Origin: Octopus vulgaris
Taxonomy: Eukaryota
Direction of reading: 5' to 3'
DNA: 64,000 nucleotides
NCBI GenBank assembly: GCA_951406725.2
Contig: OX597842.1
Location: 19,096,001 to 19,160,000 of the forward strand
Shown: positions 10,830-60,168 of the stretch, one piece after another
Layout of the letters: every line of letters starts with the position of its first letter
How positions within the stretch are numbered: the stretch's first letter is position 1
Position numbers and translations under genes: made by a program
The notes under the pieces: model-generated
The model's database searches: none
What the model was told of the DNA's origin: nothing
The model's input: only the letters and a program-made list of their open reading frames with translations

Positions 10830-12620
10830 TTGATTGATTGATTCATTCATTCATTCTAGTTTCAGCTCATGAGCTGTGGCCATGCTGGGGCACCGCCATT
10901 TGGTGTTGCTACTTGGTTTTACTTCACGAAAGCTTTTTAGCAACTGCCATTTGGTGCATGAGAGAGTTCGATGCAGCTGCCCTCATCTGCACCTCCTGCC
11001 GTGAAGTTGGTTCATCTGGGACACCTGACAGGAAGAGATCCAGTTCCATTTTAAAGACATCTGCATCCACCCCATGCAGGTCTCTCAGGTTCTTCGGGAG
11101 AATATTGAAGAGCTGTGCGCCTCGGAAACCCAGGCTATCACAGTATCTTGTCCTACATCTTGATGGCAAATTTGGAGTCCTAGGCACCACGCATTGGCGC
11201 CCAGTTCCGGCATTTGTGTAACTCTCGATGCCAAATTTTGGGACACGTCCCTCCAGGATCTTCCAGATGTATATTATGGCATATCTTTCCCACCTACGCT
11301 CCAAGGAATATAGTTTTAATCTCTTGAGTCTTTCCCAGTAGCTTACATTCTGCATAGAGGCTATCTTCTTCGTGTAGCTACGCTGGATCGCCTCGAGCTC
11401 TGTGATCAACTTGACACTGGATGGTGACCATAACTGAGAGCAATAGTCAAAGTGGCTTAGGACAAGTGTCCTCCAGAGGACCATCGTGGTTTCTTGTTCT
11501 CTTGTTCTAAAGGTTCTGAGAATCCATCCGGCCAGTCGTCTACATTTCATTGCCAATTTAGCAACATGTACACGAAAGGTTGCGTCATCACTCATGTAAA
11601 TACCCAGGTCACGCACTGATTGTGCCTCTGGGATTGCTATTCCTCCGGGTCCAGTGTATTCATTGGGTATTGCATTTAGTTTTGCATGCTGATAGTATAA
11701 AGCTTGAAACTTTTCAGCATTGAACTGCATGCTATTCTTTTCGGCCCACTTGTATATTTCGTCTAGCTCACATTGCAGGTGTTTAGTGTCCTCAGGGTTC
11801 TGTATTGCCTGTGAAACTTTTGTATCATCTGCATAACTTGTGATCGTGGCTCTCTGCGTGGCTGAGGGCATGTCTGAGAGGGCCAGTAGTGGTCCCAGAA
11901 CAGTGCCCTGCGGAACACCGCTCACTATTTGCGTGTTAATGGAAGTGGCCCCATTGGCTACTACCACCTGACTTCTATCTTTCAGAAAGTCATGAAGCCA
12001 TTCTCCCAGTTTTCCAACTATGTTGAGATCACGCAGTTTGTGACATATCATTCCATGATCGACTTTATCAAAGGCCTTTGCAAAGTCGAGATATATCACT
12101 TCCACATTTGAGTGGTTGAACAGCCGTTTCAGCACCCAGTCATAGTGTTGTAGGAGCTGAGTTAAACAGCTTCTCCCTGGTTGGAAACCATGTTGGGTGT
12201 CGGGCAGCAAGTCATTTTCTTCAAGGAAGGTGATCAGTTTCCTTCTGACTATTCGTTCCATGACCTTGCTGATGTGTGAGGTCAGAGAGATAGGTCTGTA
12301 GTTCTTGGCCTCCGCTCTGCTGCCTCCTTTATGAATGGGGCATATTTTACCTTCCTTCAGTTTTCTTGGAAGTTTGCCAACTGCAAGGAAGCTCTGAAAG
12401 AGGAACTGAAGTGGTCTTGCTAGGACTCTCTTACATGCTTTTAGGAGGATTGCCGGGAATCCATCGGGGCCAGTAGCTGAGTCTGTTTTCATTTCATCTA
12501 TAGCCTTTATTACATCGTCTTCCTTTATATCGATGTAATCTATCGTCGCCGCCTCTGATTTTATATCTGCAGTGGTAAAGAAGTCAGTTGGATTGGTGAT
12601 TTGGAGATGCCCAAGGGGTG
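10830..12620 (-). mobile_element. 5'-truncated CR1/L2-group LINE
   Basis: Contains the RT ORF, a short 3' UTR and a (TGAA)n/(TCAA)n tail at about 10830-10856. No endonuclease or ORF1 is present. Confidence 0.9.
10924..12492 (-). CDS. LINE reverse transcriptase domain (partial ORF2)
   Basis: Motifs GPDG, NYRPISLTS, QHGF, YLDFAKAFDKVDH, SGVPQGTVLGPLL, YADD and VRDLG. An apparent small deletion follows GPLL. Confidence 0.9.
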   Translation of the reverse strand: MKTDSATGPDGFPAILLKACKRVLARPLQFLFQSFLAVGKLPRKLKEGKICPIHKGGSRAEAKNYRPISLTSHISKVMERIVRRKLITFLEENDLLPDTQHGFQPGRSCLTQLLQHYDWVLKRLFNHSNVEVIYLDFAKAFDKVDHGMICHKLRDLNIVGKLGEWLHDFLKDRSQVVVANGATSINTQIVSGVPQGTVLGPLLALSDMPSATQRATITSYADDTKVSQAIQNPEDTKHLQCELDEIYKWAEKNSMQFNAEKFQALYYQHAKLNAIPNEYTGPGGIAIPEAQSVRDLGIYMSDDATFRVHVAKLAMKCRRLAGWILRTFRTREQETTMVLWRTLVLSHFDYCSQLWSPSSVKLITELEAIQRSYTKKIASMQNVSYWERLKRLKLYSLERRWERYAIIYIWKILEGRVPKFGIESYTNAGTGRQCVVPRTPNLPSRCRTRYCDSLGFRGAQLFNILPKNLRDLHGVDADVFKMELDLFLSGVPDEPTSRQEVQMRAAASNSLMHQMAVAKKLS

Positions 12621-12753
12621 TCGCAATATGCAGTCATACGCTCAGACAACCGATATTCTCCAGGGGCTGCAAGCTACAGTAACACCCACGCTTAGTGGTT
12701 AGCCATATTAAGATGGCTAGAATACCTCACATTATATATATATATATATATAC

Positions 12754-51649: not shown

Positions 51650-54600
51650 CTTTCATCCTGTTACAATTGGTGACCCCTGAACATAAAACAAACATGCAAG
51701 CCAACAGACGTACACAGCAACTCACCCAGGTATTTATACACTACTGTTTGTGAATAATTTCACTGTCGTTTTGACAGCTACTATACAACCTGCGGGCCAG
51801 ACCATCTCACGCTACCAATATATTGATGTGTCTCCACTGTTTTCATAAGTTGGCTGAACCGAATACGAATGAAGACTCAACAAGCAGGAAAAAACACATT
51901 TCCCAGCAATGCAACTGTTATGTTATAGATCTCATTACAGATCCTAGCCCAGACGCCACCTATGCGACTGTCAAGGCAGAAATTCGACGCAACACGCGGT
52001 CGGAAGAAAGTAAATTCAATGAGCTGATGGCAGATGAGCAGCCAGTGGACAGGACCCCGTCACAATTTTTGCGTCGCTTGTGCAAATTAAGTGGGAACTC
52101 CGCAGACACGCCTCTGCTTTGTAAAAAGAGTAAAAGAGGATCAGAGGGTTCACTAGAGCTGTACTTTGCTTCTAGTGTTGAAATGGCTGCTGGGGGCCAA
52201 TTTAGGATTTTGTTGCTAATAACCACTGGGCCATTGCGCCTCCCTCGTGGCATTGCTACGCTATGCTTGAACGGACAGGATATGGCTCACTCCACTTGAC
52301 TACTGCAACGAGCCCCTAGGCTGCCGATTCGCCCTGAAAAAGAATGTATATACTGCGAATCCAGAAATAAAAAATATTTATGCTGTTGAATTTAATCAGA
52401 AGTCTTGACTCTTTCCTTTTGATTAATATTTTAAAGTAAAGGATGGGAGCTGCACCCATCCAGAGTTACAAACCTTTCATCCTGTTACTTACAAATCGGA
52501 GGGTCCACTAGAGCTGTACGTTGCTTCTAGTGTTGAAATGGCTGCTGGGGGCCAATTTAGGATTTTGTGGCTAAAATTTCTGTTTAATTAATTGCTTATA
52601 GTTTCATAAAAGGCAATATATCCAAATATTTTCCTTTTAATGGTGGTGAAAGTGGAACTTTTACAAGTAGTGGCAGATCTACTACTATCAGAAATTCGAC
52701 ACAACACGCGGTCGGAAGAACGTAAATTCAACGAGCGCATGGCAGATGAGCAGCCAGGGTACAGGACCCCGTCACAATTCTTGAGTCGCTTGCGCGAATT
52801 AAGCAGGAGCTCTGCAGACGCGCCTCTGCTTCGTATAATATTCTTCTCCAGGTTGCCTGCCAACCTTCAGACAATTTTGGCTACAGCCCTTGAGTCCAAC
52901 ACTGTGGACCAAATTGCCACGATGGCAGATAAAATTTTGGAATTTTCTGGCCAGCCAACGTCGCGTGGCGTGTGCGTTTGCACTGAGATCCCTTTGACAG
53001 CCTGTTTCAGCCTCTTCTGTCACATGACACTATATCAGACTAAATACAGGGTGTCCCCAAAAAATGTATACACTTGCTGCAACAGTCTGTCATGCCAAGC
53101 ATTAGAGAGGACTTTGAACAGGAAGAGTTTTATTTCCAGCAAGATGGGGCACCTCCACACTACCATCGCGATGTTAGATCCTTTCTTGATGGGATCTTGC
53201 CAAACAGGTGGATTGGACGGAGAGGTTTTGTCGAATACCCTCCACGTTCACCAGACCTCACACCACTAGACTTCTTTTTATGGGGATACCTAAAGGACAA
53301 AGTCTACGCACAGAAACATGCAACAGTCGTTCAATTGGGGGCAACCGTTGAACATGAATGTACGAATATCCCAAGGGAATTGTTCCATGATGTGTGCCAT
53401 TCCATCGCTTCGCGTTGTCAGCAGTGTCTGGAGCAGAACGGACATCAGTTTGAGAACATGCGATAACAAGACAAAAGAATGATATTTGTAAATTCTTTTA
53501 CATGTTGAAAATTATTCGAATTATAATAAACCCCAAATTTACAATTATTTAAGGTGTGTATACATTTTTTTGGGACACCCTGTAGATGTGCTGACACGAT
53601 GCATAGACGAGCTATATCGCTTGCGCGAATTAAGCGGGAACTCCGCAGGCGCGCCTCTGCTTCGTAAAATGAGTAAAAGAGAATAGGCAATATATCCAAA
53701 TATTTTGTTCTTATAGGTGGTGAAAGCAGAACTGTTACAAGTAGTGGTGGATTTTCTACTACTATCAGACCTTTCTATCAGAGAATAGGCAATATATCCA
53801 AATATTTTGCTCTTAATGGTGGTGAAAGTAGAACTATTACAAGTAGTGGTGAATTTTCTACTACTATCAGACCTTTCATCCTGTTACAATTGGTGAACCC
53901 TGAACATAAAACAAACATGCAAGCCAACAGACGTACACAGCAACTCACCCAGGTTTTTACACACTACTGTTTGTGAATCATTTCACTGTCGTATTCACAG
54001 CTACTATACAACCTGCGGGCCAGACCATCTCACGCCACCAATATATTGATGTGTCTCCACTGTTTTCATAAGTTGGCTGAACCGAATACGAATGAAGACT
54101 CAACAAGCAGGAAAAAACACATTTCCCAGCAATGCAACTGTTATGTTATAGATCTCATTACAGATCCTAGCCCAGACACCACCTATGCGACTGTCAAGGC
54201 AGAAATTCGACGCAACACGCGGTCGGAAGAAAGTAAATTCAATGAGCTGATGGCAGATGAGCAGCCAGGGGACAGGACCCCATCGCAATTCTTGCGTCGC
54301 TTGCGCAAATTAAGTGGGAACTCCGCAGACACGCCTCTGCTTTGTAAAAAGAGTAAAAGAGGATCAGAGGGTTCACTAGAGCTGTACTTTGCTTCTAGTG
54401 TTGAAATGGCTGCTGGGGGCCAATTTAGGATTTTGTTGCTAATAACCACTGGGCCATTGCGCCTCCCTCGTGGCATTGCTACGCTATGCTTGAACGGACA
54501 GGATATGGCTCACTCCACTTGAATCAGAAGTCTTGACTCTTTCCTTCGATTAATATTTTAAAGTAAAGGATGGGAGCTGCACCCATCCAGAGTTACAAAC

Positions 54601-54920
54601 CTTTCATCCTGTTACTTACAAATCGGAGGGTCCACTAGAGCTGTACGTTGCTTCTAGTGTTGAAATGGCTGCTGGGGGCCAATTTAGGATTTTGTGGCTA
54701 AAATTTCTGTTTAATTAATTGCTTATAGTTTTATAATAGGGAATATATCCAAATATTTTGCTTTTAATGGTGGTGAAAGTGGAACCATTACAAGTAGTGG
54801 TGAATTTTCTACTACTATCAGACCTTTCATCCTGTTACAATTGGTGACCCCTGAACTTAAAACGAACATGCGAGCCAACAGACGTACACAGCAACTCACC
54901 CAGGTTTTTATACACTACTG
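51650..54920 (+). mobile_element. Repeated Ty3/gypsy-type LTR-retrotransposon leader and gag fragments
   Basis: ...TGTTACA followed by PBS-like TGGTGACCCC (51668, 54842; variant at 53891). Gag-like TPSQFLRRLR, FFSRLPANLQTILA and IATMADKILE at about 51930-52120, 52690-52985 and 54150-54345. Confidence 0.7.
53047..53582 (+). mobile_element. Internally deleted mariner/maT-type (DDxD) transposon
   Basis: TA|CAGGGTGTCCCCAAAAAATGTATACAC ... GTGTATACATTTTTTTGGGACACCCTG|TA. The ORF has FQQDGAPPH and YPPRSPDLTPLDFFLWGYLKDKVY. Confidence 0.9.
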
Positions 54921-55795
54921 CCAGGAACTAAGATTGTCACAGATTCTTGGAGAGCGTATAATAGCCTACCAAACCATTTGACTGTGAACCAGTGTCACCT
55001 TTGTGGATACCAACAATGCCTCAATCCACACAAACACCGTGGAAGGGATGTGGAGTCACATGTAATCAAATTATCGGAGGATGCATGGAACGTTCCAGAA
55101 TTTTCTTCCAAAATATTTCCATCAAATTTGTAGAGATCGACAAATTCAAGTTCATGCACAGGAAATACCATCGCGGTAGTCATCGAGTCGGGCACTAGGT
55201 TCTTGGAATGGTGGAATGGGAAAGTCCGAGATGTGTTTAGTTCCTGTGGAAAACAGAAGTCCAGCAACATTGTTGCCTATTATTAGCTGCCATGTTCTGC
55301 CAGGAACTAAGATTGTCACAGATTCCTGGGGAGCGTATAATAGCCTACCAAACCATTTGACTGTGAACCAGTGTCACCTTTGTGGATCCCAACAACGCCT
55401 CAATCCACAAAAACACTGTGGAAGGGATGTGGAATCACATGAAATCAAATTTTCGGAGGATGCACGGAACGTTCCAGAATTTTCTTCCAAAATATTTCCA
55501 TGAATTTTGTAGAGATCGATGAATCCAAGTTCATGCACAGGAAATACCATCGCGGTAGGTATCTTAGGAGACTATCCGCAGGGGTCTGGGTGGCAGTGGA
55601 CCCAAACCACTTAATGTCAAAAGCTGTTTTCAGCCTGGAGACTTAATCAGCAAAAAATCTGGTGCTCCCAGATTTTCTAAGAATGGCTGGGACAAGGTAT
55701 CTTGAGCGATGTGGAGTCACGTGAAATCAAATTATCGGAGGATGCACGGAACGTTCCAGAATATTCTTCCAAAATATTTACATGAATTTTGTTTT
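54919..55795 (+). mobile_element. Tandemly rearranged Merlin (IS1595/ISXO2-like) transposase fragments
   Basis: VEIDESKFMHRKYHRG, VPVENRSPATLLPII..VLPGTKIVTDSWGAY, HLTVN and TVEGMWSHVK, with frameshifts. Confidence 0.8.
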
Positions 55796-55939
55796 ACTTC
55801 AAAAAGATTTCGTACAGAAGGAGACAGGAAAACGAATTGGTTACACAAACCTAATAACGATAACTCCATGCGAGCAATTTCACATCCTACGTACGATTCC
55901 GTAATGAAGAAAAGGATTGGAATATGAAGAATGGAAAAC

Positions 55940-56875
55940 TCTGAATAAACCTTTCAAAGAAAAATTTGAAAATATGCCTTGGGGATACTTCGACAACAAC
56001 AAATGCTACATGGAGAGAGACGTCTCTCTAAAAATATTCAGATCCACACTCATGACCCAGGACATCATTGAATGAACATTTGTCTCAACAGTATGGGAAT
56101 TAAGGCAGATTCTCCATAGCAAATGGCAGGACAGGATCGCTAACACAGAGGTTTTGGACCGTGTCAACATCATCTGTGAGAGGCGTCTTCAGTGGCTAGG
56201 CCATGTCAGCCGAATGGATGCAGGACGGATTGCAAAGGACCTACTGTACGGACAGCTAGCGGAAAGCTCCAGAACAATGGGACGGCCCAAACTGCGCTTC
56301 AAGGATATTTGCAAGAAGGACCTAAAGCTATGCCAGAGCAACACCCAAACATGGGAATCCACCGCTGCCAACAGAGGCACCTGGCGACACAGTGTCAAAC
56401 TAAAGAGAACCAGGCGAAAGGAGCAGCAACCACAGCTCTCGTCCCCTTTCACTTGCACCAGATGTGGTAGGGACTGCCACTCGATGATTGGTCTGCACAG
56501 CCACACCAGGAAGTGCAGATAGACCCACCACCTTTTCTGAGCTACACCATTGTCTCTTGAGATAGACGGATGCCGGATGCCAAAGATGGGAATTACTAAC
56601 ACAAAAAAAACCTAAAAGAAATCTTCAGGTATTAAGGGGCATTCCTAACTCTGGCAAATCAATGATAGCAAGAAGTATCGCAGATATGTTTACACACGTA
56701 TCAACCATTCAAGGGACAACTAGTTCCCCCATTCCAGAACCTAGTAAATGTTGAAATTGGTTTAATAGAAGAACCAAACTTTACACTGGAAACACTACAA
56801 ACTCTTAAAAAACTAGCTGAAGGCGTTGACGCTGAAGTCGCAATTAAATTCAAACGAGACCAAATTGTCCACAGG
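55940..56875 (+). pseudogene. Endogenous parvovirus/densovirus NS1 fragment, copy 1 (split by an RTE insertion)
   Basis: After removing the RTE it reads TFVSTVWELLTQKKPKRNLQVLRGIPNSGKS (Walker A)...GLIEE (Walker B)...KKLAEG. One stop and one frameshift. Confidence 0.8.
56103..56585 (+). mobile_element. 5'-truncated RTE (BovB-like) LINE with 10-bp TSD ATGGGAATTA
   Basis: RRLQWLGHVSRM..LLYGQL..GRPKLRFKD and a terminal CxxC...HxxxC finger. TSD copies at 56093-56102 and 56586-56595. Confidence 0.85.
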
Positions 56876-56905
56876 TTCTTCAATGTGGTGCCGAAACACT
56901 GGAAT

Positions 56906-57570
56906 ATGTAGAGATCAACGAATCCAAGTTCATGCACAGGAAATACCATCGCGGTAGTCATCGAGAAGGGCACTAGGTTCTTGGAATGGTGGAATGGGAA
57001 AGTCCGAGATGTGTTTAGTTCCTGTGGAAAACAGAAGTCCAGCAACATTGTTGCCTATTATTAGCTGCCATGTTCTGCCAGGAACTAAGATTGTCACAGA
57101 TTCCTGGGGAGCGTATAATAGCCTACCAAACCATTTGACTGTGAACCAGTGTCACCTTTGTGGATCCCAACAGTGCCTCAATCCATAAAAACACAGTGGA
57201 AGGGATGTGGAGTCACGGGAAATCAAATTTTCGGAGGATGCATGGAACGTTCCAGAATTTTCTTCCAAAATATTTACATGAATTTTGCAGAGATCGACAA
57301 ATTCAAGTTCATGCACAGGAAATACCATCGCGGTAGGTATCTTAGGAGACTATCCGCAGGGGTTTGGGTGGCAGCGGACCCAAACCACTTAATGTCAAAA
57401 GCTGTTTTGAGCCTGGGGACTCAATCAGCAAAAAATCTGGTGCTCCCAGATTTTCTAAGAATGGCTGGGACAAGGTATCTTGAGGGATGTGAAGTCACGT
57501 GAAACCAAATTATCGGAGGATGCACGGAACATTCCAGAATTTTCTTCCAAAATATTTACATGAACTTTGT
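56906..57570 (+). mobile_element. Second block of Merlin transposase fragments
   Basis: Near-duplicate of 55128-55795. Confidence 0.8.
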
Positions 57571-57714
57571 TTTACTTCAAAAAGATTTCGTACAGAAGGA
57601 GACAGGAAAGCGCATTGGTTACACAAACCAAATAACGATAACTTCATGCGGGCAATTTCACATCCTACGTACGATTCGGTAATGAAGAAAAGGATTGGAA
57701 TGTGAAGAATCGAA

Positions 57715-57941
57715 AACTGAAGTTGATAGATCACAAGATAGTGGTGTAGGAGAAAGTCAAACTATGGGTGATCCACATGTAGGACCAGCACCTGGTGGGT
57801 CTGTGGCTATGGCAACAGGAGATCAACCACCAGACATAGGTGATATAAATCCAATTGTATCTAAAAAATTTTCACGGACATTTGTGCATTACGTAAACTG
57901 TAGCGATCTTCCTACCCTTAAAGCATATTATAAAAAACACA
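57715..57941 (+). pseudogene. Possible parvoviral capsid (VP) N-terminal fragment
   Basis: A Gly/Pro-rich stretch followed by KKFSRTFVHYV, resembling the first jelly-roll strand of invertebrate parvovirus VP. It lies next to the NS1 fragments. Recognised by eye only. Confidence 0.4.
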
Positions 57942-57978
57942 ATGGGGATACCTAAAGGACAAAGTCTACGCACAGAAA

Positions 57979-58713
57979 CTGAATAAGAAACTCCCAAAGT
58001 GTAATCTACTTGTATTAAGGGGTTTGCCAAATACTGGCAAATCTAGGGTAGCTAGAAGTATTGCCGAGATGTTCACTCATGTCAGCACGATTCAGGGGAC
58101 AAGGAGTTTCCCATTTCAAAACTTGATTAATGTCGAAATAGGTTTAATCGAAGAACCGAATTTCACTTTAGAAACACTTCAGACATTCAAAAAGCTTGCT
58201 GAAGGGACTGACACTGAAGTTTCTGTAAAATTCAAGCCAGACCAGGTTGTCCACAGAACACCATTGATCATTACTTCAAACAACAAATTCGACAGCAACG
58301 CACCTTTACACGAAAGATATGCTTTCATCACGAGATACACAGAATATCTTTTCCAAAAAACATCTCCTTTCCTTCAATATGTTAAGAAAACAATTAATCC
58401 TATTATATGGAATGTATTATTTTATGAACATTGTTTTTCTTCTTTAATTAATGACGATGGTTCCTCATCGGATGACAATTTATGTCACATTCTAGAAGAA
58501 TATGAAAAGCTCACCAATCGAGACGCCGACAAAGAAAACAAGCGACCAGGTGGATTTCGGACTCTGTCTGGTTCTGGAAGCGGGTCAACCGTTAGAGTCT
58601 TCTCCGAAACAGACGAAGAAGAACAAGTCCCAGAAAAAAGGAAAAAGTTCAGAAAGCTGAGATACACACCAAATTACGAGGCTGATAGTGAACTATCAGA
58701 TTCCGAACTGTAA
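57979..58713 (+). CDS. Endogenous parvovirus/densovirus NS1 SF3 helicase domain, copy 2 (open frame, 5'-truncated)
   Basis: KKLPKCNLLVLRGLPNTGKS (Walker A), FPFQN, GLIEE (Walker B), VSVKFK (B'), RTPLIITSN (motif C), and an acidic/basic tail with KRKKFRK. Confidence 0.88.
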   Translation: MNKKLPKCNLLVLRGLPNTGKSRVARSIAEMFTHVSTIQGTRSFPFQNLINVEIGLIEEPNFTLETLQTFKKLAEGTDTEVSVKFKPDQVVHRTPLIITSNNKFDSNAPLHERYAFITRYTEYLFQKTSPFLQYVKKTINPIIWNVLFYEHCFSSLINDDGSSSDDNLCHILEEYEKLTNRDADKENKRPGGFRTLSGSGSGSTVRVFSETDEEEQVPEKRKKFRKLRYTPNYEADSELSDSEL

Positions 58714-59170
58714 TTCTTTTGCATTTATCATTTATTTCTATTTTTCATTATCAATTATATAATTTGTAATCTGGAAATGTATTCAGAACTCTTCAAATTA
58801 ATTATATTTTTCTTGAAAATGTATTTGTATTTTAAATCTTTAAATAAAAATGATAAAAAATTTTTTTATTTAAATTTAAATAAAAATTCAAAAAAAAAAA
58901 AAAAGAAGCGTGCCAAAAGGGGGAGACCAACCGGCCGAGAGGTCAGTTGGTCCCCTCCCCCCCAATTTTTTTTTATTGAAGATGATCGCACTGCTTCAAA
59001 GAAGTCAACTGGTCGGGAGGGAGGTAGATTACGTCATATATATTGATATTCATTAAATTTTTTTTTTCATTACTACATTTTACGAAAAACCCAGAATTTA
59101 ATAATTGTTAAACATTTTCCTCTTTTCAGGTGAGCCAAAAATTTATGCAGTTAACCTAAATTTATTAATA

Positions 59171-60168
59171 ATGGCTAAAGGAAAGATGTTGACAGATGGT
59201 GAAATTGGGTGAAATTGTTAAATTACTTGCTGCAAAGAAGTCTACATTAGAAATTTCAAAAATTTTGAAACGAGATCATCGAACGTTTCGTCATTGACGG
59301 CAAAGATGGAAGAAAAAAGCACAAAAGTGTCAGACCAAAGGTGACTTCACCACGAGATTTGAGAAAAATCAAGAGGAGTGTGCTAGCAAACCCACACAGC
59401 ACAAGCAAAGCTATTTTCAACCATGCAGGAGTGTCTGACATCTCTAAAAGGACCCGAAATCGGATTTTGAAACAAATAGCGGACCAGAGAACACCAACAA
59501 AATGTCCTCCTTTGAGTGATATCAACTGTCAGATGCGACTAGCATGGGCCACTAAATATTTGAAAACCAATTTTCAAAATGTTCTCTGGACTGACGAGGC
59601 TAGAGCAACCCTCGACGGTCCCGACGGTTGGACCAAGTGATGGCTTCTTAAAGGCAATAGCCCACGCTTGCGATTCAGACGTCAACAGGGAGGAGGGATT
59701 TGGGCTGGGATTATTGGAAGTGAGATTGTTGGTCCTTTTCTTGTCCCTGAAGGTGTCAAAATGAATTCTGTGAACTACTGCGAGTTTTCGGAAGAGAATT
59801 TATTGCCCTGGTTGAATTCACAAAATGATGCTGTCAACCAGAATCTCATTATTCAACAAGACGATGCCCCAAGCCATGCTTCTCGGTTCACAAAAGCTTG
59901 GCTTTCAGACCAGGGGATCTCTGGTGAACGTCTGATGGACTGGCCACCTCAGAGCCCGGATTTGAATCCGATAGAGAACCTCTGGTCGATTCTGAAGAGG
60001 AAGGTTTACGAAAACGGCCATCAATTCAACAGTAAAAAAGACATTTGGGAGAGGATCAAGGAGGTATCTTCTGAAATCACACCTCAACAAGTGCATAAAT
60101 TAACATCCTCTGTTGATAGGAGGCTGATGGATTTGATTAAGAATGGAGGAAAGCGTATAAAGGGTTAA
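59171..60168 (+). pseudogene. Tc1-family (DDE) transposase, frameshifted
   Basis: MAKGK start, VLWTDEARATLDGPDGW, QQDDAPSH and WPPQSPDLNPIENLW, with internal stops and frameshifts. Confidence 0.9.

Follow-up and report, generated by a model that had tools for sequence, protein, structure and literature searches.

A probable cluster of endogenous fragments from two parvovirus-like lineages in the genome of Octopus vulgaris

Introduction

How did two diverged copies of a parvovirus-like replication gene come to lie within 2 kb of each other in an octopus genome? The question is raised by a window of 64,000 nucleotides from Octopus vulgaris (contig C29, positions 19096001-19160000), the whole stretch of DNA analysed here, in which two segments resemble the superfamily 3 (SF3) helicase of the parvoviral nonstructural protein NS1. 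An earlier reading of the letters alone (the sequence-only reading) had proposed that related viruses were captured at least twice at this locus. Our analysis suggests that window positions 55787-58960 are probably a non-coding cluster of endogenous fragments from two distinct parvovirus-like lineages, likely captured in at least two events at a transposon-rich spot and then broken up by host processes. The viral content of the cluster consists of three NS1 pieces and one piece of a capsid gene (VP), all on the + strand, on which the host pieces described with them are also given. The cluster is endogenous in that host repeats flank and interrupt it, one of its NS1 copies is disrupted, and independent samples carry the locus. 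Own-genome searches cover the 2.8-Gb assembly of 227 contigs, and NS1 residue numbers refer to P0001, the nearest full-length relative (547 aa, 68% identical to copy 2).

Two NS1 copies of different lineages

Copy 1 (within 55787-56890) and copy 2 (57980-58713) both contain the peptides MFTHVSTIQGT and VEIGLIEEPNFTLETLQT, as the sequence-only reading had pointed out, and over the 93 codons that they share they are 72.8% identical in DNA. The differences are distributed 16:9:51 by codon position. At synonymous sites there are 47.8 differences over 63.0 sites, a saturated proportion (pS) of 0.76, as against 28.2 differences over 216.0 non-synonymous sites (pN 0.13), and the resulting pN/pS of 0.17 (Fisher p 3e-21) is far below 1. 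Copy 2 is nearer to a copy on another chromosome (contig C9), with 89% identity over 223 codons, a non-synonymous divergence (dN) of 0.047, a synonymous divergence (dS) of 0.454 and a ratio of 0.10; in DNA the two are 87% identical over 797 bp.

A protein tree of 29 rows (11 own-genome pieces and 18 external proteins) and 96 columns groups copy 2 with the C9 copy at a support of 87/90. The corresponding DNA tree was confined to nine own-genome rows and 288 columns, without external proteins and without C14c and C19, the two pieces that diverge most; it has no fork at 80% support among these nine rows, and only the approximately unbiased (AU) test was used from it. Forcing copies 1 and 2 into one clade costs 13.8 log-likelihood units and is rejected (AU p 0.035). 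Short motifs divide the family in a similar manner, with 'KLPKCN' and 'VARSIAE' common to copy 2 and the C9 copy, and 'KKPKRN' and 'MIARSIAD' common to copy 1 and the C5, C12 and C14b copies. The two helicase copies diverged under strong purifying selection, and on these comparisons they are not each other's nearest kin.

One might suppose instead that either copy arose from the other by tandem duplication at the locus, followed by drift, and an 816-bp tandem-like duplication containing NS1 sequence does exist there. This origin is very improbable. The helicase parts are 73% identical, whereas the duplicated block is 95% identical, and the codon-position pattern, the low pN/pS, the closeness of copy 2 to the C9 copy and the AU test all run against it. 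The argument of the sequence-only reading, that divergence at synonymous sites reflects purifying selection and not local duplication, is thus borne out.

The 816-bp duplication itself had been overlooked in that reading. A block at 55125-55940 (block A) is repeated at 56903-57718 (block A') with 95.3% identity over 816 bp (self-blastn). It consists of tandem pseudogene scraps of an ISXO2-like transposase (DDE_Tnp_IS1595; Pfam PF12762, E 2.5e-5) and, after these, ~150 bp from the start of NS1 copy 1, so that the duplicate carries in its final ~155 bp a third NS1 piece, at 57565-57723 (P0001 residues 196-246). This third piece is 95% identical to copy 1, has no DNA match to the C9 copy, and belongs to the copy 1 lineage, unlike copy 2. 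Since NS1 keeps its collinear order beyond the right-hand end of the first block but not beyond that of the second, the block at 55125-55940 is likely the source and that at 56903-57718 the duplicate. The NS1 parts of the two blocks differ 4:3:7 by codon position, with no clear excess at third positions, and neutral decay after a host-side duplication would give such a pattern. Around the viral pieces, at 54860-55800 and 56850-57570, the transposase scraps form a small satellite-like array with periods near 280 and 380 bp.

Anatomy of the NS1 copies

Copy 1 starts at 55787 (tblastn with P0001) and not at 55940, where the sequence-only reading had placed it. Its 5' part (55787-56102; residues 196-302 by tblastn and codon map) has a frame change near 55908-55918 and an in-frame stop, TGA, at 56073-56075. 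A 483-bp insert then splits the copy at 56103-56585; NS1 homology is colinear across it and resumes at 56587. The insert, identified by own-genome DNA search and sequence reading as the 5'-truncated tail of a long interspersed nuclear element (LINE), is bordered by a 10-bp target-site duplication, ATGGGAATTA, at 56093-56102 and 56586-56595. It is a member of a dispersed repeat family with at least 48 own-genome DNA matches (40 of 80 candidates scored), whose long copies are 79-85% identical to it. Among the matches listed most stop at about query base 473, which is the pattern of a 5'-truncated LINE tail. The helicase core of copy 1 follows at 56587-56890 (about residues 300-400), with the Walker A segment GIPNSGKS, named in the sequence-only reading, at 56638-56661 and a Walker B of IGLIEEP. 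In the stop-to-stop listing the Walker A segment is read in a frame at 56566-56754 and the core continues in another frame within 56669-56911, with a second frameshift near 56725-56733. The NS1 homology is cut off at about 56890, before helicase motif C, and the 3' part is missing.

Copy 2 lies in an open reading frame of 259 aa from stop to stop (57934-58713). Of these, 244 codons at 57980-58713 are homologous to NS1, close to the 245 or so that the sequence-only reading had counted as open, and they correspond to residues 303-547 plus the stop codon, with neither stop nor frameshift throughout. The three motifs by which SF3 helicases are recognised, Walker A, Walker B and motif C, are all present, as GLPNTGKS (58021-58044, likewise named in that reading), IGLIEEP and PLIITSNN. 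The open frame has no Met ahead of the P-loop. No HUH nuclease domain is found in either window copy, both of which begin at or after residue 196 in the tblastn alignment with P0001.

Beyond the copy 2 stop, the motif ATTATATAATTTGTAAT is common to copy 2 and all four other copies aligned. The non-coding tail at 58714-58960 contains two AATAAA signals, A-runs and a short hairpin, and such signals and A-runs after the stop also occur in the copies on C9, C5 and C12. With C9 the tail is shared to about 58776 by blastn, and inspection by eye extends this to one AATAAA and A-run further on. Sharing with C5 and C12 reaches about 58950, and these two have in common with copy 2 ~45 further bases ending in the hairpin at 58919-58958. 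This hairpin marks the 3' limit common to the copies in the window and on C5 and C12. A reading of 58870-59050 as a viral terminal hairpin was not adopted, the DNA fold being weak (z -1.9, and z -0.7 for the matching C5 stretch). One base pair of the hairpin has apparently changed on both sides between copies (CAAC/GTTG vs CGAC/GTCG, by eye). Origin of copy 2 as a retrocopy was rejected, because the A-runs are internal to the sequence common with C5 and C12 and hence do not form a terminal tail. A direct repeat flanking copy 2 was looked for and none was found.

The capsid fragment

A stretch of 224 bp separates the second block from copy 2. The sequence-only reading had suspected a capsid fragment there, and the stretch is unique in the genome except for a 38-nt piece of a high-copy host repeat at 57942-57979, between the fragment and copy 2. 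The own-genome DNA search lists 39 other places for this repeat, 38 of them at 100% over 38-39 nt and one at 98%. The suspected fragment proved to be a scrap of VP, at 57722-57934 (about residues 103-168 of the external protein P0020, or 131-194 of the C4 'capsid'), within an 89-codon stop-free frame at 57686-57955. Translated and searched against the whole genome, this frame matches four places on contig C4 with open frames of 209-551 aa (E 1.7e-5), and window positions 57764-57934 align to a VP-like open frame of 542 aa there. Over 54 aa, P0020 (525 aa, from a 4017-bp contig) matches the window piece with 50% identity (pairwise E 5e-16), and as a query against the whole genome it recovers 57722-57922 at E 4.7e-8.

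The capsid assignment of these partners draws on the parvoviral phospholipase A2 (PLA2) domain PF08398, found in the C4 frame at E 2.2e-13, in P0019 at E 4.5e-13 and in P0020 at E 2.4e-12. P0019, a C4 protein, is named 'capsid [Octopus vulgaris]' in the database. The Pfam capsid models are all under their cut-offs in the C4 frame, IHHNV_capsid reaching 17.2 bits against a cut-off of 25. The window scrap spans only the stretch directly behind the PLA2 domain and does not include the PLA2 part itself.

Parvoviral identity

Both window copies are above the Parvo_NS1 cut-off of 20 bits in Pfam, the check that the sequence-only reading had proposed: the copy 2 open frame scores 50.9 bits (E 1.4e-13) and the copy 1 piece at 56566-56754 scores 22.7 bits (E 5.7e-5). 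Both helicase segments are real, and well past anything that chance would give. A search for longer proteins yielded nine NS1-like relatives of 456-775 aa. Against solved structures a single-sequence search reached an E of only 2.8e-5, and the profile of the nine relatives matched NS1 (9kbj) at 9.2e-13, the Rep68 and Rep40 proteins of adeno-associated virus (AAV) at ~2e-10 to 2e-9 and papillomavirus E1 at ~2e-8, so that NS1 and Rep68 stand ahead of E1. Among 1.84 billion representative proteins the same profile matched 1707 at E<=1e-3, 874 at <=1e-10 and 72 at <=1e-30, many of these relatives being on contigs of 3-4.6 kb. One of the 30 relatives looked up carries a name, P0057, 'MAG: nonstructural protein [Turdus hortulorum parvoviridae sp.]' (E 3.1e-39). 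The N-terminal part of all nine full-length relatives keeps 'HFH' and 'NY' motifs, which we take to be those of the HUH nuclease. The AlphaFold model of P0001 has a mean pLDDT (predicted local distance difference test) of 66, with the 10-residue blocks of the helicase mostly at 74-94 and two at 65 and 70. Scans of IMG/VR with P0001, VP and the NS1 alignment found no relatives, nor did one scan of metagenome contigs.

The link between the NS1 and VP families is seen in P0033, an NS1 of 593 aa that is 45% identical to copy 2. P0033 and the VP P0020 come from a 4017-bp contig of one source, and the two likely belong to one small genome.

It is scarcely credible that the helicases are not parvoviral at all and come from a papillomavirus-like, polinton-like or CRESS (circular Rep-encoding single-stranded DNA) virus SF3 element. 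Papillomavirus E1 belongs to the same SF3 helicase fold family as the window NS1, and its model PPV_E1_C is second on copy 2 and also above its cut-off (42 bits, E 8.5e-11), but Parvo_NS1 outscores it in every protein tested. Five of five sampled relatives have Parvo_NS1 above cut-off with PPV_E1_C second, so that the double match is normal for the NS1 family, and the named Parvoviridae sp. nonstructural protein gives it as well. The octopus sequences lack the E1 DNA-binding domain, full-length relatives have the upstream HFH motif, and NS1 is partnered by a VP gene of parvoviral type: the genome contains a VP of the same group with the PLA2 domain, and a scrap of such a VP lies between the window NS1 pieces. 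The NS1 and Rep proteins of Parvoviridae (AAV Rep68/Rep40, 9kbj) share the SF3 helicase with the window copies, with a profile match over about 150 residues; their kinship to the octopus family is distant, and the window copies are without the nuclease domain.

Relatives elsewhere in the octopus genome

The copy 2 protein has 16 own-genome matches (23 candidates scored), three of which are the window's own, the others being on C9, C5, C15, C12, C1, C14, C19 and C27. The N-terminal part of NS1 matches C9, C25, C14 (three places) and C5, and VP matches are found in the C4 array, on C5 (two places), C22 and C12 and in the window. All told, at least nine more NS1-like places, and several with VP, are present in the genome.

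The C9 copy, whose protein is named 'nonstructural' of Octopus vulgaris in the database, is nearly full length (L017 6332-8078; residues ~39-547) with one frame change. It lies between 67-bp direct repeats (92.5% identical) of LINE sequence and ends in AATAAA, 8 nt and A10. It could be a retroposed NS1 transcript, although part of the A-run is native to the viral tail. On C12 (L022 5076-6317) the end of VP (residues 404-542, to the stop) and an NS1 that starts at residue 281 lie on the same strand, the NS1 beginning within six bases of the VP. Considered alongside the window, this joint raises the question of the gene order, or of the concatemer form, of the source virus.

Two larger assemblages were also observed. 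A 17-kb stretch at C14:64321500-64338720 (L020, L021) contains seven or more NS1 pieces, all on the + strand and 27-83% identical to P0001, which represent no fewer than three lineages. At C4:168362700-168376400 (L033-L040) capsid copies in both orientations, five to six in number, follow one another at intervals of about 3 kb. Several of them have 99.6-100% identity and 542-551 open codons that include the PLA2 domain. No NS1 was found within 40 kb of this capsid array, which reflects either recent amplification or a host-retained gene.

Authenticity of the locus and possible host use

Every junction of the cluster is bridged by contigs of four runs from four studies, three under one organism label and one under a second label. 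In run X1, record 5 spans 55802-56949 without any difference, record 7 spans 57580-57971 and record 8 spans 57950-58850. Contigs under the second label show about 99% identity and run across positions 56903 and 57718. The four-run contigs cover 52000-58850; cover stops at about 58180 in X5 and at about 57970 in X13. Six runs under the second label (X13-X17 and X19) contain 65-75% of sampled 31-mers of 55780-58960; with the ~99% identity of the X13 contigs, this indicates an arrangement common to two species labels. Among the public runs looked up, in which the covering runs are of unrecorded type, no run recorded as RNA contains the stretch.

From the anatomy of the pieces, we infer that none makes a working protein now. 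It is nonetheless conceivable, if unlikely, that the host has kept copy 2, alone or with the whole cluster, as a truncated helicase protein or as a producer of small RNAs directed at related viruses. In favour of this, 244 codons of copy 2 are open, fragment piles of several lineages on one strand occur both here and on C14, and contigs of small assemblies (about 95 million letters) contain the locus. Such a use does not sit well with the absence from copy 2 of a start codon before the P-loop and of a nuclease domain, with the lack of promoter evidence or of any run recorded as RNA, or with the low dN/dS between copy 2 and the C9 copy, which is explained by divergence as viruses.

One capture or several

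The two NS1 copies are in different states of preservation. Copy 1 has suffered one stop, two frame changes and the insertion of an old LINE family in about 600 nt, as against none of these in the 734 nt of copy 2, and by this greater number of lesions it would be the older. On a rough Poisson estimate, equal age leaves copy 2 free of lesions about one time in seventy, which is weak support with so few lesions. In the history that we favour, non-homologous repair would have inserted fragments of viral DNA at germ-line breaks in a transposon-rich region. The older capture would be copy 1, with the VP scrap and copy 2 arriving later, possibly together; the repair event that brought these in may also have given rise to the 816-bp duplication. 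With only some ten places in the 2.8-Gb genome bearing NS1, chance is very unlikely to have put two independent insertions within 2 kb; the alternatives are that such spots accumulate viral DNA and that the pieces came in as a linked unit.

A single event has a modest chance of being the right explanation. Mixed infection by two related viruses could have produced an already rearranged concatemer, one integration of which brought in both NS1 lineages and the VP scrap. All viral pieces are on the + strand within 3.2 kb, as such an origin would have it, and the C12 joint of a VP end to a 5'-truncated NS1 shows that rearranged VP-NS1 joints occur in the family. The much greater decay of copy 1 than of copy 2 argues against it, as do the host repeats and the host-side duplication that separate the pieces. 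Of the earlier claim of at least two captures of related viruses at one locus, the two viral lineages are therefore established, and that they came in separate events is what we infer from the unequal decay.

Several points weigh against the capture of two lineages in at least two events, followed by decay, and temper our preference for it. How many integrations took place was not observed directly, one capture of viral DNA that was mixed or recombined would give the same two lineages, and the unequal decay is a matter of few lesions. The protein tree leaves the position of copy 1 unresolved, the AU p-value is only 0.035 on 288 columns, and synonymous saturation makes dating impossible. Terminal hairpins are not demonstrated, the sole hairpin found folding at z -1.9. 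The covering runs are of unrecorded type, so that transcription is neither shown nor excluded, and loss of function is judged from anatomy only.

Neighbouring features of the window

Directly downstream of the cluster, at 59269-60168, is a Tc1/mariner transposase remnant in two frames (HTH_Tnp_Tc3_2, E 1.7e-9; DDE_3, E 1.1e-11). Further off, a fairly intact retroelement at 10927-12633 on the - strand encodes a reverse transcriptase domain (RVT_1, E 8.8e-27) in an open frame of 569 codons. At 1-1788 and 1870-2343 a long open frame with at least 20 C2H2 zinc fingers runs off the left window end and is likely an exon of a zinc-finger (ZNF) gene.

Comparison with known parvoviral elements and viral-fragment clusters

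Parvovirus-related sequences of O. bimaculoides and O. vulgaris had already been listed by François et al. 2016 (Sci Rep 6:30880, PMC5013282). In the supplement of that paper, the O. bimaculoides sequence KOF81493 contains NNVWYLLNKKHPKCNLLVLRGLPNTGKSMIARSIA and is plainly of the same NS1 family as copy 2 and the C9 copy, and KOF62817 resembles the C14a lineage. An O. vulgaris transcript with a VP-like match is listed, one row marks an adjacent transposable element, and for one octopus sequence the best BLAST match is an Iteradensovirus NS (PMC5013282). According to the same source, those parvovirus-related sequences of four marine mollusc classes that are nearer to vertebrate parvoviruses branch outside all known parvovirus genera. 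For the octopus viruses, the 'densovirus-like' of the sequence-only reading is no more than a candidate label. The octopus entries in the available portions of PMC5013282 are accessions only; neither the window locus nor its pair of lineages is described there, and the same goes for the VP scrap, the inserted LINE and the duplication of 816 bp. The literature searched yielded no further paper on parvoviral elements of cephalopods. The description in the sequence-only reading of a host group with few described parvoviruses needs qualifying in this light, since octopus parvoviral sequences were already in print and the field is less blank than implied. No isolate of a cephalopod parvovirus was found in that literature.

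The cluster is a real and presumably non-coding viral fossil that adds members to the family listed in 2016, a well-documented but ordinary case. It records the entry of two or more lineages of an unclassified parvovirus group into the octopus germ line, and it offers a worked example, with exact breakpoints, of how such a fossil is reshuffled by LINE insertion and local duplication. With the intact C4 capsid array and the C14 pile, this genome is a good place for studying cephalopod parvoviruses.

Clusters of viral fragments in arthropods are comparable: in those derived from infectious hypodermal and hematopoietic necrosis virus (IHHNV) in crustaceans (PMC12287923) and those of Aedes (PMC7522710), as described in the portions of these papers available, rearranged non-retroviral pieces likewise lie amid transposon debris, with several lineages side by side. 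The Aedes clusters differ in having a function from small RNAs (PMC7522710), whereas the octopus locus is known from sequence alone and its host is a cephalopod. It is a long shot that octopus chromosomes maintain same-strand piles of several parvovirus lineages at a few transposon-rich spots, among them this locus and the 17-kb C14 pile with its at least three lineages, and that these serve as small-RNA memory loci against those viruses. If they did, such piles would be the cephalopod counterpart of the PIWI-interacting RNA (piRNA) clusters of mosquitoes.

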